A stretch of DNA of 64,000 nt. Source: Anaeromyxobacteraceae bacterium. Its GTDB lineage: Bacteria; Myxococcota; Myxococcia; Myxococcales; Anaeromyxobacteraceae. Below the pieces are notes generated by a model. It saw nothing but the letters and a program-made list of their open reading frames with translations. It made no database searches and had not been told where the DNA came from. This document shows positions 243-46,200 of the stretch, one piece after another. The position numbers and the translations under genes are program-made. Each line of letters opens with the position of its first letter. The stretch's first letter is position 1. The stretch lies in NCBI GenBank assembly GCA_047602405.1, contig JASGHJ010000002.1:480001-544000 (forward strand). Reading direction: 5' to 3'.

Positions 243-656
243 ACCTCCTCCTCCTCCTTCCTGGTCTCCCCCTCCGTAGGCATGCGTGTCCGTGGGAGCC
301 AAACGGGCCTCCGCGACAGCGCTTGCTCGGACGGGTTTGAGACGGAAGAGATCGCCGGAACCGTTGCCGTTCCACGGCGGTGATCGTGCAGCACGCCTGC
401 GGACCATGTGCGCGTGACGACGCCGTGCGCTTCGCGCACGTCGCCGTCCTCGCGCGATGGTTCCTTGGCCTGCAATGCGAGATGTGGTGGCGGTACCTCG
501 CCCGTCGCTCGCTGCGCGCTGCTGCGGAGGCCCGTTTGGCTCTCGGGCGGAGTGGACGGCGGTGCGGCCGTGACTGCTGGGTGGCTGGAGATGAACTGAT
601 ATGGTTGGACCCGTCAACGAAGCCGGCCCGGTCGCAGGGTCGGCTTTTTCGTTTCT

Positions 657-867
657 GCGTTCGGGCGGCCAAGGCGGTGGTCGACCTGAACTAGAGCGAC
701 GGCGGATCAGACTGATATTCGCGGGTTGGGTACCGCATGACCTGAATCCGTCGGGGGCTGCCTCGGTCTAACAGCGGGCATCAGGCTTCACGGCCCTGCC
801 CATAGTTCATACGAGGATTCCCCTTTGGGCCGGACCAAGTCGTCCACCGCCCTCGCCGCCCGAACGC
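657..867 (-). ncRNA. Putative bridge RNA / seekRNA of the IS1111-type element
   Basis: Outer stem 657-680 with 844-867 encloses two stem-internal loop-stem modules; loop sequences match the target (ATGAACTA; CTAAC) and donor junction (CTGATAT). Confidence 0.8.
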
Positions 868-874
868 GTCACAG

Positions 875-1969
875 CTACGCCTTTAGGAGTTGTGGCTGGC
901 GCCCGATGGCCCAGACGAATCCCGCCAACTCGCGCGCGATGGCAACGACGACGCGGTTCTTGTTCATCCCGCGTCCCGTGAGCTTCCGATAGCGACCGCA
1001 GAGCCGCTCCTGGGCACGCCAGGCGATTCGCAAGACCTCCTCCGACAAGCCTCGACTTCTCTTCCTGAGGGCAGGGCTGTTCGCTGCTCGGTACCGGTAA
1101 GCCCAGGCGGCCTCGACGAGAATGCGCCGAGCGTGGCCGTTCCCGGCGCGTGTGATTCTCCCTTGCTGCCGAGTTTCTCCGCTCGAGTGTTCCGAGGGGA
1201 CGAGGCCGAGGTAGCCCATCAGCTCGGGGGCAGTGGCGAACCGGTCCAGGTCGCCGAGCTCCGCTGCGAGCACCGTGGCCGTGATGAGGTTGACGCCGCG
1301 TAGCGACTGTAGCGCCTTCACCAGGGGCATCCGGCTCCAGCTCTCCACGAGCTCCTCGATGCTGCGGGTATGCCGGCGAACCCTCTCCCCCACGTCTTCC
1401 ACCGTCTTCAGGTAGTCCTCGAGGACCCGTTGCTGCGCCTCGTGCTCGAAATGCTGGACCCGAACCCACGCCAGGTGGTCGCGAGTCCACCGTGTCTTCC
1501 CTGTCCAGCGCCGCCCATGACGGAGAAGGAACTTCCCGAGCTGGTGACGGGCTACGCGCTCAGCCTTCTTCGCGGCATCTCGCGCGCGCTCGAGATCGCG
1601 CATGGCCTCGGTGGCTTCGTCGGGCACGTGGACTTCGGTCAGGTCTCCAGACCTCAGAAACCGGGCGAGCTTCACGGCATCCCGCCGGTCGGTCTTGACG
1701 CGATCGCCGGCCTTCATAGGCACCAACGAAGGCGCGACCACGACGCATTCGACGCCGCCGGCGTTGAGCGCTCGGTAGAGCCCGAACCCTGTTGGACCAG
1801 CCTCGTAGCAGCATTTGATGGTACCGAGCCGTCGCAGGCGCTTCAGCAGTGCCGCGGTGTCGTTGGCGACGACCGCCAAAGCGCTCGGCTCTCCCCGGCC
1901 GGGCTCAGCGACCGCGATGGCGATGCTGTCTGCGTGGACGTCGAGACCGACGAATCGTACGCTCTCCAT
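875..1969 (-). CDS. IS110-family DEDD transposase/recombinase (364 aa)
   Basis: MESVRFVGLDVH, YEAG, KTDRRDA (RuvC-like DEDD), YLGLVPSEHSSG..ITRAGN..RRILVEAAW (Tnp domain with catalytic Ser). Confidence 0.96.
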   Translation of the reverse strand: MESVRFVGLDVHADSIAIAVAEPGRGEPSALAVVANDTAALLKRLRRLGTIKCCYEAGPTGFGLYRALNAGGVECVVVAPSLVPMKAGDRVKTDRRDAVKLARFLRSGDLTEVHVPDEATEAMRDLERARDAAKKAERVARHQLGKFLLRHGRRWTGKTRWTRDHLAWVRVQHFEHEAQQRVLEDYLKTVEDVGERVRRHTRSIEELVESWSRMPLVKALQSLRGVNLITATVLAAELGDLDRFATAPELMGYLGLVPSEHSSGETRQQGRITRAGNGHARRILVEAAWAYRYRAANSPALRKRSRGLSEEVLRIAWRAQERLCGRYRKLTGRGMNKNRVVVAIARELAGFVWAIGRQPQLLKA

Positions 1970-2502
1970 GGTTGGACCCGCCTCCCGCTGTGGCTCTGCG
2001 CCGTGGGGTTTCGCAGCTTCGCGGAGTAACCCACGTTCGCGTGACAGCGGGTCCAACCATTCTGTCTAACGGTGGAGCGAAGGCGCCTACGGAGAGAGAA
2101 GAACGGCATCACCGTCACCGCTCGTGCGTCAGTCTCTCCGCTGCCGCCTCATCACCATCAGTTCAGCACTTGCTACCCAGCATCTACGGCCGATCTCAGT
2201 GCAATGCATCCGTGGGCGAGACGTGCCCCCGCAGCGCCGGCCGGCGGAGGTCGGGCTCTCCACGTGTCCAGTATCTCAGCGAATGCAGGCCAAGGGATGT
2301 GGGCGTGTGACGGCATGGCGCGCGCAGCGCGCTGTGCCGTCACGCGCAACTCAACCGCAGGCCTGCCGCGGCCTGAACGATCGCAGCGGCCCCGGTCCCG
2401 GGCGTCTGTTCCATACACGGACCGACGCAGCCGGCCGGCGTCGCGGGGGCGCGTCGAGCCCCCTCGGCACCGCACCTCCCTCGAGCCTGGAGGAGCGTGA
2501 GG

Positions 2503-38920: not shown

Positions 38921-39533
38921 GGCAGGCCTGCGGTTGAGTTGCGTGTGACGGCACGGCGCGCTGCGCGCGCCATGCCGTCACGCGCACACATCCCTTGGCC
39001 TGCAATCGCTAGGATCCTGGTGGCGTGGAGAGCCCGACCTCCGCCGGCCGGCGCTGCGGAGGCGCGTTTCGCCCTCGGGGGTGGAGACCTGAGGTCGGCC
39101 GATACTGCTGGGTGGTGAGTGATGAACTCATGGTGAGTGACGGCGACGACGGCGATGACGGTGATGCGGGACGGATCGCCGCCCCGCCGCTGGCCGTTCA
39201 TCAGCACCCGTTAGTCGCCCATCAGCACCCAGCAGTCTCGGCCGGCCTTCATCCGCTACCCCCGAGAGCCAAACGGGCCTCCGCAGCAGCGCGCAGCGAG
39301 CGACGGGCGAGGTACCGTCACCACATCTCGCATTGCAGGCCAAGGAACCATCGCGCGAGGACGGCGCCGTGCGCGCAGCGCACGACGCCGTCACGCGCAC
39401 ATGGTCCGCAGGCGTGCTGCACGATCACCGCCGTGGAACGGCACGGTTCCGGCGATCTCTTCCGTCTCAAACCCGTCCGAGCAAGCGCTGTCGCGGAGGC
39501 CCGTTTGGCTCCCAAGGACACGCATGCCCACGG
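38921..39533. repeat. Long non-coding fold-back repeat, copy 2 (IS-free, inverted relative to copy 1)
   Basis: Reverse complement aligns to 274-597 + 2068-2367. Confidence 0.9.
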
Positions 39534-43281: not shown

Positions 43282-46200
43282 CTAGGCCTTCTCGATGTCG
43301 ACCAGGAACGCCTTGTACTCGGGCGTCTGGATGTTCGCGTCGCCCACGCTCGGGGTGAGCGTGTTCGCCATGTGGCCCTTCTTCGCCACGCCCATGAAGC
43401 CCCAGTGGATCGGGATGCCGACGGTCTCGACCTCCTTGCCCTGGATCTTCAGGGTCGCCATGCGCTTCGTCACCACCGCCTTCGCGGTGATCCGCCCGCG
43501 CTTCGACCTCACCGCGATCCGGTCGCCGTTCTTGATCCCCTTCTTCGAGGCGAGGCTCTCGGAGATCTCGACGAAGCCCTCCGGCTGGAGCGCGGCGGCG
43601 GTGCGCGTGTGCTTCGTCCAGAAGTGGAAGTGCTCGGTGACGCGGTAGGTGGTCGCGACGTACGGGAACTCGGAGGCCTTCCCGAACTTCTCCCGGTCGC
43701 CGGGGAACACCCGCGCCGCCGGGTTCGAGAGCGCCCTGCCGCCCATCGGGTTCTTCTCGAGCGGGGTCTCGAACGGCTCGTAGTGCTCGGGGAAGGGCCC
43801 CTCGACCATGGCCGGCGCCCACAGGCGGGCGACGCCCTCGGCGTTCATGATGAACGGGCCGACGCCCTCCTCGGGCGCCGCGTCGGCGCGCATGTCGGGC
43901 ACGTCCGGGCCCGCCCACGCCTTGCCGTTCCAGGCGACGTACTTGCGATCCGGGTTCCACGGCTTGCCGGACGGATCGGCCGAGGCGCGGTTGTAGAGGA
44001 TGCGCCGGTTGGCCGGCCACGACCACGCCCAGGAGCCGGTGGCCCCGAGGCCCGTCGGATCGGCGGCGTCGCGCCGGGCCATCTGGTTGCCGGCCTGGGT
44101 CCAGGAGCCCGTGAAGATCCAGCAGCCCGAGGTGGTGGTGCCGTCGTCGCGCAGGTGCGCGAACGTGCCGAGCTGCTCGCCGGCCTTGGCGAGGACCTTG
44201 GTGGGATCCTTCGGGTCGGTGACGTCGGCGAGCGCCGTGCCGTTGAACTCCATCGCGAGCTCCTGCGGGGAGGGCGCGCGCGGCTTCTTGTACGGCCAGG
44301 TCAGGTTGAGGATCGGGTCCGCGAAGGTCCCGCCCTCCTTCTTGTAGAGCGCGCGGATGCGGGTGAAGAGGTCCGCGACAATCTCGATGTCGTTGCGCGC
44401 GTCACCGGGCGGCTCGGCGGCCTTCCAGTGCCACTGCAGCCACCGGCCGGAGTTGACGAGCGAGCCGTCCTCCTCGGCGAAGCAGGACGAGGGCAGGCGG
44501 AACACCTCGGTCTGGATCTTCGTCGGGTCGACGTCGTTGAACTCGCCGTGGTTCTCCCAGAAGCTCGCCGTCTCGGTCGCGAGGGGATCGATCGAGACGA
44601 GGAACTTGAGGCTCGAGAGGCCCTTCAGGAGCTTCGCCTTGTCCGGGAAGGAGGCGAGCGGGTTGAACCCCTGGCACAGGTACCCGTTCACCTTGCCCGC
44701 GGCCATCATGTCGAAGTAGCGGAGGATGTCGTAGGGAGCGTCGATCTTCGGCAGGTAGGCGTACGCCCAGTCGTTCTCCTTGGCCGCGGCGGCGCCGAAC
44801 CAGGACTTCTGCAGCGACACGAAGAACTTCGTGTAGTTCGCCGAGAGGTAGTTCATCTGCCCGGGCCTGAGCGGCTTCGGCGTGCGCTTGTCGACGTAGG
44901 TGGCGTAGTCGGCGTCGGCCTCGGTCGGCAGCGTCAGGTAGCCCGGCAGCGTGTGGCTGAGGAGGCCGAGGTCCGTGAGCCCCTGGATGTTGGAGTGGCC
45001 GCGCAGCGCGTTCATCCCGCCGCCCGGCATGCCCATGTTGCCGAGGAGCAGCTGGATCATCGCCATGGTCCGGATCATCTGGGAACCCTGGCTGTGCTGC
45101 GTCCAGCCGAGCGCGTACAGGTGCGTCATCACGCGCTCCGGCGCCGCGGTGGAGCCGACGAGCTCGCAGATCTGCTTGAACTTCTCCTTCGGCGTCCCGC
45201 AGATCTCCTCGACCTTCTCGGGCGTGTAGCGCGAGAAGTGCTTCTTCATGAGCTGGTAGACCGAGCGCGGGTCCTGGAGCGTCATGTCGACCTTCGCGTA
45301 GCCGTCCTTGTCGACGTCGTACGCCCAGGTCGCCTTGTCGTACTTGCGCTTCGCCTCGTCGTAGCCGGTGAAGAGGCCGTCGGCGAAGCCGAACTCCTCC
45401 TTCACGAGGAAGGGCGCGTTCGTGTACGCCCGCACGTACTCCGTCTGGATCTTGTCGTTCTGGAGGAGGTAGTTCGCGAGGCCGCCCAGGAACGCGATGT
45501 CCGAGCCCGCGCGCACCGGCGCGTAGACGTCGGCCATCGCCGCGGTCCGCGTGAAGCGCGGGTCGACGACGATCAGCTTCGCCTTGTTCTTGACCTTCGC
45601 CTCGACCACCCACTTGAAGCCGCAGGGGTGAGCCTCGGCGGGGTTCCCTCCCATGACCATCACGACGTCGGCGTTCTTGATGTCGACCCAGTGATTCGTC
45701 ATCGCACCGCGACCGAACGTGGGGGCCAGACCGGCCACCGTGGGTCCGTGTCAAACGCGTGCTTGGTTGTCGAAGGCCACACCTCCCATCGACCGGAAGA
45801 CCTTGTGCGTGATGTAGCCGGTCTCGTTCGAGGAGGCGGACGCGGCGAGCATGCCCACCGTGGTCCAGCGGTTGACCGCGACGCCCGCCGCGTTCTGCGC
45901 GACGAAGTTCTTGTCGCGGTCGTCCTTCATCAGCCGGGCGATGCGGTCGAGCGCCCAGTCCCAGGTGACCTTCTCCCACTTCGTCGCGCCCGGCGCGCGG
46001 TACTCGACCGCCTTCAGGCGGTTCGGCGAGCGGACGAAGTCGACGAGCGAGGCGCCCTTCGGGCAGAGCGTGCCGCGGTTCACCGGGTGGTCGGGATCGC
46101 CCTCGATGTGGAACACCTCGGAGCGCGCGTTCTTGGAGCGGTCGCCGAGCGTGTAGAGGATGACCCCGCAGCCGACGGAGCAGTAGGGGCACGTGTTCCG

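Follow-up and report, generated by a model that had tools for sequence, protein, structure and literature searches.

The stretch considered here, which we call the window, comprises 64,000 nucleotides (nt) of contig JASGHJ010000002.1 from an Anaeromyxobacteraceae bacterium (assembly GCA_047602405.1, positions 480,001 to 544,000), and close to its start it carries an insertion sequence (IS) of 1,470 base pairs (bp) that spans window positions 598-2067 and reads on the minus strand. The sole long frame of the element, tnp (875-1969, minus strand), begins with an ATG preceded by GGGAGG and encodes a DEDD/Ser recombinase of 364 amino acids (aa), and the non-coding end downstream of it holds a predicted bridge/seek RNA (657-867, minus strand). 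We interpret the locus as an intact IS1111-type element whose downstream end is predicted to give a two-loop bridge/seek RNA that would guide the DEDD/Ser recombinase to ATGAA-CT-AACGG, and we put the probability of this reading at roughly 0.85. Several of the features had been proposed in an earlier description made from the letters alone, the sequence-only reading.

Borders, host repeat and transposase

The borders of the element were fixed by comparing its copies. A search of its own genome with 598-2067 returned four full-length copies, each aligning over exactly positions 1-1470 and differing from the window copy by 0, 1, 1 and 2 bases, respectively; one of the four is inverted on the chromosome. 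In the re-read sequence, the core dinucleotide CT occupies 596-597 and, once more, 2066-2067, and with CT shared by the two borders the cut can be placed only to within 2 nt, as for every element of this kind. In silico, excising 598-2067 gives GATGAA-CT-AACGG and joining the ends gives TCTGT-CT-GATAT, which reproduces both strings of the sequence-only reading at the coordinates it had named; in the sense of tnp, the predicted circle junction reads ...CCATATC-AG-ACAGAATGG....

All four copies lie in the same site, WTGAA-CT|AACGGT, inside a palindromic repeat that resembles a miniature inverted-repeat transposable element (MITE). Their flanks read ...GCTGGGTGG-n7-(A/T)TGAACT at one border and AACGGT(G/A) at the other, with CT on both sides in each copy and the flank sequence otherwise unrepeated, a pattern of site-specific insertion in which any target duplication does not exceed the shared 2-nt core. 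In the window, the left half of the target with the core (GATGAA-CT; WTGAACT in four of four copies) falls at 590-597 and the right half (AACGGTG; AACGGT in four of four) at 2068-2074, both on the plus strand; the target, 13 nt long, would be carried by ATGAACTAACGGT, and new insertions would be expected in sites related to ATGAACTAACGG. Because the borders and the site WTGAA-CT-AACGGT are fixed by copy comparison, they are independent of the reasoning of the earlier description, which had pointed to the flanks of other copies as a check; those flanks place all four in one site and not in unrelated ones.

The MITE-like host repeat is 350-580 bp long with arms of ~160 bp, is found at ~15 loci in the genome (26 BLAST pieces), and has arms of two sub-types, with the termini CTGCGCGCAC.../...GTGCGCGCAG. 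It surrounds the IS at window positions 430-597 and 2068-2340, recurs at 38960-39378, and receives the element at the inner tip of one arm. The four IS copies lie in diverged members of the repeat and use only the sub-type that ends in TGAACT-AACGGT; empty members end in TGAACT-ACCGGT, GGAACT-AACGTT, TGAACT-GATGGTG or TGAACGACTAACGG. A perfect empty site (TGAACTAACRG) had no match in the element's own genome, and, as far as sequence tells, all four perfect targets in that genome are occupied by one active-looking IS. Near-sites with at least one mismatch are empty at C2:2411838 (TTGAACT|ACCGGT) and at window position 44849, the latter an isolated ATGAACTA-CCTC; ATGAACTA itself occurs twice in the 64-kb window against 0.07 occurrences expected.

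Two of the occupied sites, C2:980641 and C2:2508405, share similar right flanks, as would fit an origin of the four copies from duplicated repeat-plus-IS blocks, with an element that is now inactive. We consider such an origin very improbable: the flanks differ at many positions within 40 bp, against at most 2 of 1,470 positions between the IS copies, one copy is inverted, all frames are open, empty members of the same repeat family exist, and long identical flanks were not seen.

The tnp frame is open in four of four copies, and its product belongs to the IS110 family, as had been claimed, with matches to Pfam PF01548 (DEDD_Tnp_IS110, E = 3.6e-13) and PF02371 (Transposase_20, E = 8.3e-22) and to NCBIfam NF033542, 'IS110 family RNA-guided transposase', where it scores 254.3 bits and the cut-off is 140. 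The predicted catalytic residues D10, E56, D94, D97 and S263-G264 are present as judged by HMMER alignment to the ISCro4 and IS621 chains: a short N-terminal alignment to ISCro4 places D10, E56, D94 and D97 on the DEDD positions, and the C-terminal domain matches the PDB chains of ISCro4 (E = 2.6e-8) and IS621 (E = 2.7e-8). In addition, GLVPSEHSSG at residues 255-264 fits GL-P----S(t)G, the motif of IS1111 transposases according to PMC11187229.

The closest transposases in plasmid collections are 52-54% identical, the ISSfr2 family among them, and the closest relative in a scan of one genome per species is 84% identical and stands in a metagenome-assembled genome (MAG). The target and inverted-repeat strings had no natural match in the readable parts of the supplements of PMC11187229 and PMC11208160, where two synthetic oligos matched. 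In view of these figures and of the missing natural match in the founding papers' supplements, the wording of the sequence-only reading, an intact and possibly uncharacterised RNA-guided recombinase, is fair as far as 'uncharacterised' goes, with no named element close to it among those compared; it does not extend to an element new in kind, since the RNA-guided IS110/IS1111 class was demonstrated experimentally in 2024 (PMC11187229, PMC11208160) and NCBIfam names the family.

The layout agrees with the IS1111 type that had been proposed. A perfect 13-bp inverted repeat lies subterminally at 601-613 (right end in the sense of tnp; plus strand ATGGTTGGACCCG) and 2048-2060 (left end), set 3 and 5 nt in from the core, and its length falls within the 7-17 bp by which the IS1111 group is recognised. 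The non-coding end is 277 nt long downstream of tnp (598-874) against 98 nt upstream (1970-2067). Subterminal repeats and a longer non-coding end downstream of tnp are, at the level of sequence, IS1111-group marks; the downstream end also contains the match of the RNA model (window 694-832, C2:480694-480832).

A predicted two-module RNA and its target loop

Relatives were collected by scanning the contigs of one genome per species for the transposase and keeping the best 80 of 174 (47-84% aa identity). Searched with a regular-expression anchor, 58 of the 80 gave an RNA core and 22 none, mostly for cut contigs or diverged anchors; 48 distinct strings were listed. After removal of five false anchors (L046:1637, L055:1609, L098:1359, L112:1530 and L117:1) and four near-duplicates (L090, L091, L108 and L115), the remaining 39 and the window RNA make up the 40-sequence alignment (A1) used below.

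The minimum free energy (MFE) fold of the reverse complement of 598-880 has -135.3 kcal/mol (z = -4.67), with none of 200 shuffles folding as well, and it draws the two-module RNA in a long stem that the sequence-only reading had led us to expect. The closing stem, 657-680/844-867, shows at least one compensatory change in 20 of its 23 pairs (14 longer sequences). Within it, the target-binding module (754-823, minus strand) is built from stems 820-823/754-757, 812-816/761-765 and 797-801/776-780, of which the last two had been proposed, as had the closing stem; both are present in the MFE fold, and both covary in the 40 relatives. Helices 1-4 of the target module are 82.5-100% paired in A1, with double changes in 12 of 15 pairs, and the module as a whole has 90.8% of its cells paired, compared with 33-47% when the partners are slid by 1-3 columns. 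In four of five whole-structure measures, none of 500 shuffles equalled the observed value.

The donor-binding module (697-753, minus strand) has an outer stem (748-753/697-702) and an inner stem (733-737/720-724), both 89-95% paired with little variation, a conserved loop, UACCCAAC, that is almost invariant in the family (UA(A/C)CCAAC), and a middle pairing that is ambiguous. RNAalifold mis-drew this module on the 40-sequence alignment; for the left ends discussed below, single-sequence folds were used. A search of window 400-2300 against Rfam 15, at E up to 10, gave no relevant match; weak matches to archaeal C/D-box snoRNAs in the host-repeat arm (2127-2187, minus strand) scored 16 and 14 bits, where the thresholds are 42 and 38, and were taken as chance.

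The two sides of the target loop match the two strands of the insertion site. The 5' target guide, AUGAACUA (803-810, minus strand), is complementary at 8/8 positions to TAGTTCAT on the tnp-sense strand of the target (ATGAA-CT-A on the window plus strand) and covers the left half, the core and one further base; the 3' target guide, CUGUUAG (768-774, minus strand), is complementary to CT-AACGG on the window plus strand at 6/7 positions, the mismatch being G.U. Both matches had been put forward in the sequence-only reading, and both guides co-vary with the flanks in relatives. The segment complementary to the top (tnp-sense) strand precedes the bottom-strand one in the RNA, an order found also in IS1111 seekRNAs and reversed in the IS110-type ISEc21 (PMC11187229).

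For the comparison of loops with flanks, the ends of the relatives were placed through the inverted repeat (core, 5 nt, repeat ... repeat, 3 nt, core), and of 57 RNA-locus pairs 17 were removed (no repeat, wrong length, left core not AG, or short flank), which left 40 pairs with 27 distinct RNAs. Cognate pairs agree at 109 of 162 positions (67%) between six right-flank bases and the reverse complement of the 5' loop side, against 27.8% in non-cognate pairs, and at 101 of 161 between left-flank bases and the 3' loop side, against 45.3%. The cognate total of 210 was reached in 0 of 10,000 permutations, whose maximum was 157. A mutual-information scan blind to the model, in which each of the 175 RNA columns was set against the flank and end positions, picked out the guide columns: right-flank positions +1 to +4 had columns 38, 37, 34 and 33 as their top partners (89, 93, 78 and 74% complementary), and left-flank positions -2 and -3 had columns 79 and 78 (89 and 78% identical). 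Close relatives occupy quite different sites, each spelled in its own loop, with right flanks AGTTCGC in L043, AGCAGGC in L050, AGGGTGGG in L048 and AGAGGCGC in L128 beside the 5' loop sides GCGAACUA, GCCUGCUA, CCCACCCU and GCGCCUCU, respectively. From this co-variation we therefore conclude that the target loop reads ~4-5 bases to the right of the core, 3-4 to the left, and the core from both sides. With loops that follow the flanks and the element end in relatives, and with NF033542 naming the family RNA-guided, the guide-loop interpretation that had been offered appears sound.

The presence of all four copies in one repeat family would also be expected if the protein itself recognised the DNA of the host repeat, the structure downstream of tnp being a 3' untranslated region, terminator or stability element and the target matches incidental. 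Such an account is hardly credible to us, given that relatives at 47-84% identity sit in unrelated sites with their loop bases changed to match, at the right flank in 67% of positions as against 28% by chance.

Two further observations concern single groups of relatives. In an alpha-proteobacterial clade (L077, L108, L109 and L110 versus L111 and L112), the left core is AG and the right core AA in several copies, with UU in the 5' target guide and AG in the 3' one; the AG/AA mismatch looks like differing donor and target cores, with the heteroduplex resolved differently at the two junctions. In L104, a copy enclosed by GGATTAG repeats, agreement between guides and flank requires a shift of 2 nt; this copy may be an off-target or slipped insertion.

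Donor loop and predicted handshake bases

The donor guide AUAUCAG (712-718, minus strand) is, in the sense of tnp, identical to the element's final five bases together with the core, and its 7/7 match to the junction is the one described in the sequence-only reading. We followed this guide in 46 RNAs (the 40 of A1 and six covariance-model matches in related genomes): its first 6 nt recur 61-121 nt downstream, at the RNA's own right end, in 40 of the 46, compared with 12 of 1,178 pairings of a right end with non-cognate guides. The exact heptamer is found at the right end in 29, and most of the others differ only in the second core base. Six variants match their own ends (ATATCA, ATGAGA, ATCTCA, ATAGCA, ACATCA and ATCCTA), with a one-base exception in L048, and columns 153 and 155 agree with right-end positions -3 and -1 at 100% identity. 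A same-genus RNA match, L127 (G012:C4:1420353-1420492), has no recognisable right end in the 420 nt downstream and may be a decayed or truncated copy.

The working RNA might be a short seekRNA of ~80-100 nt that consists of the target module only, with the ends of the element found via the flanking target halves and the second module used for protein binding or processing. PMC11187229 reports such short seekRNAs for ISEc11, ISPa11 and ISKpn4, with predominant RNAs of 82-96 nt that have target matches only, and a donor that needs target flanks; in the present element, a donor match is seen on just one side of the second loop and the middle pairing is ambiguous. We nevertheless judge a target-module-only RNA unlikely, as six variants of AUAUCAG each follow their own right end, which would not be expected of a module with a purely structural role, and both modules lie as one unit within the covarying long stem.

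Beside the 3' target guide of the two-loop RNA stands AC (766-767, minus strand), a predicted handshake guide whose match is not to the target but to the two bases that open the left end. Its first base equals left-end position +1 in 27 of 27 relatives (A in 18, U/T in 9), these two states reflecting a single clade split, and in the clade whose left end starts with TC the handshake bases are UC. The base that follows AUAUCAG (column 158) ranks second among the partners of right-flank +1 (mutual information 1.17, 67% identical). Handshake guides were defined for IS621 (PMC11208158), and in the sequence comparison AC and column 158 behave like them.

A guide for the left end of the donor, which the sequence-only reading had called not clearly identifiable, did not emerge from the column scan either, and three candidates were rejected. 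AUUC (743-746), set against left-end GAAT, is ACUC or AUCC in close relatives with the same left end; GUC (739-741) matches the core G and left-end +1 and +2 in several clades, its changes being explained by wobble in an alternative helix; and GUCUGAU (706-712) is 7/7 complementary across the junction here, its UGAUC staying unchanged in relatives that differ in their ends. Probably the RNA reads at most 3 nt of the left-end half of the donor, and most likely the protein reads the rest on the 13-bp repeat.

Predicted expression, proposed mechanism and known relatives

A predicted promoter forms only at the circle junction, from the -35 half TTGACG (612-617, minus strand) and the -10 half CAGAAT (2059-2064, minus strand), which the join would set 17 nt apart; the computed arrangement scores 9/12. 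Among 28 relatives the score is 8/12 or higher in 26, and TTGAC is present in 23; junction promoters are reported for ISEc11, ISEc21 and IS621. A third copy of the repeat (1968-1980, minus strand) overlaps the start codon. In the fold of the reverse complement of 1940-2067 (-60.1 kcal/mol, z = -4.11), this copy pairs with the left-end repeat at 2048-2060 and covers the Shine-Dalgarno (SD) sequence and AUG, and an equivalent closing helix, in another register, is found in the MFE of five of six relatives folded and in the centroid of the sixth. RNAalifold on the left-end regions missed the fold-back, the register of which differs between clades. In transcripts entering from outside, the fold-back would hide the SD sequence and AUG; initiation at the junction promoter would give a transcript without most of the helix's 5' strand, so that translation may depend on the circular form. 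A terminator-like hairpin with a strong T tail on the plus strand (619-647, plus strand), placed between the RNA and the right-end repeat, faces transcription that enters from outside, inward from the right end.

Another terminator-like hairpin lies in the host repeat at 2101-2123 (minus strand), ~35 nt outside the left end, and faces into the IS in the sense of tnp. Among public sequencing runs, no RNA run is listed with the element, only metagenome DNA runs in which its share is small.

These features can be joined into a tentative scheme of asymmetric, hybrid donor recognition, which we hold as possible without expecting it to prove right: in this IS1111 lineage the RNA would read only the right-end side (5 nt and the core) and, on the left end, a 2-nt handshake; the remainder of the left end would be recognised by the recombinase on the 13-bp repeat. 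In this scheme a left-end fold-back, coupled to donor reading, would mask the start codon in all transcripts but those initiated at the junction promoter. If true, this would be a hybrid RNA/protein mode of donor reading unlike the four-guide scheme of IS621.

By analogy with IS621, ISEc11 and related work, we expect that the element would be excised as a circle joined at the CT core, and that the join would create the TTGACG-17-CAGAAT promoter, which would drive tnp and, by read-through, the RNA downstream. The RNA would bind a recombinase tetramer, AUGAACUA and CUGUUAG would hold the two target strands with an overlap at the core, and AUAUCAG would hold the right-end side of the donor junction. 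After exchange of the top strands, AC beside the target guide would pair with the incoming left end in a handshake, and serine-mediated exchange at CT would insert the circularised element without target duplication.

The guided-element reading draws on features that are directly observed, namely the borders, four copies in one site, the protein family, the fold and its covariation, the loop matches, and the co-variation of the loops with flanks and ends. Several points weigh against it. A sigma-70-like promoter was not found in the linear element, and any account of how the RNA is made is therefore inferential. The transposase, at 364 aa, is longer than the 330-350 aa quoted for IS1111 transposases. 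The second module had been proposed with two stems, of which the inner one is borne out at 89-95% pairing; the middle stem (703-710/742-750) is not supported as drawn, with only 52.7% of its cells paired on the family alignment. By eye it is kept in close relatives with a migrating bulge, and it competes with a mutually exclusive helix (738-742/704-708, GGUCA/UGAUC), which agrees no less well with the alignment: it is 80% paired, with one-sided changes only and no double changes. None of the 175 RNA columns tracks the variable left-end positions +4 and +5, as a left-end donor guide would. Matches are imperfect in several relatives (at the right flank, 0/6 in L104 and 2/6 in L102), and the permutation and shuffle counts ignore relatedness and overstate independence. 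Finally, an uninterrupted target in its repeat context had no match in 37 genomes (the element's own and 36 of the same genus, many incomplete), and precise insertion thus rests on copy comparison and family geometry.

The element adds, from a high-GC bacterium, a natural bridge-recombinase system that can be read cleanly: its 13-nt target and its donor junction are defined, and guides and sites co-vary in ~45 relatives. It offers a ready candidate and a comparative data set for IS1111-type RNA-guided recombination, which is less studied than that of IS621, and it does not change what is known of how such elements work. Bridge RNAs have been predicted in 93.0% of the IS1111 elements in ISfinder (PMC11208160).

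Among described systems, ISEc11, ISPa11, ISKpn4 and ISPst6 (PMC11187229) are alike in their subterminal repeats, in a long non-coding region downstream of tnp, in the GL-P----S(t)G motif, in two RNA segments that lie on opposite target strands and overlap at the insertion point, in the order of these segments, and in a junction promoter. The present element differs from their descriptions, on which alone the comparison is based, in its longer protein, in a different target within a MITE-like repeat, and in a second loop with an evident donor match. IS621 (PMC11208160, PMC11208158; PDB 8wt6) shares DEDD and Ser, a CT core in both target guides, a target and a donor loop, and handshake bases beside the core-binding guide; it carries its RNA upstream of tnp, whereas here the RNA lies downstream, with the guide order relative to tnp reversed. 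Its inverted repeats are 2-3 bp long as against 13 bp here, the protein match is confined to the C-terminal domain, and one donor guide is not identifiable in our element.

The closest annotated proteins, matched over their full length, are transposases of the ISSfr2 family and unnamed IS110-family members on Azospirillum and rhizobial plasmids, which at 52-54% identity have other targets and ends. Alpha-proteobacterial loci from the one-genome-per-species scan have the same RNA architecture, with the donor guide AUGAGAG. ISCro4, which we take to be a close likeness of IS621 and a member of the IS110 group, is the best match in the PDB (9t56); the DEDD and SG positions align, over two short stretches only of a distant protein. 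ISPpu9 and ISPpu10 are reportedly IS110-family elements that insert at one fixed position of a repeated extragenic palindromic (REP) element; the host repeat here, with its 350-580 bp and ~160-bp arms, is not a short REP.

A covariance model of the RNA, R1, found it in the element's own genome only inside the four copies, once in each, with no orphan RNA genes, and elsewhere in one copy each in five of 24 same-genus genomes and in two copies in one genome of another family, which is a patchy, mobile distribution. A second, different IS110-family element, to which R1 has no match, is present in four copies (G000:C1:164241-165311, C1:1073649-1074719, C1:1256672-1257748 and C2:3207010-3208089) and matches NF033542 at 287-294 bits with open frames of 474-477 aa.

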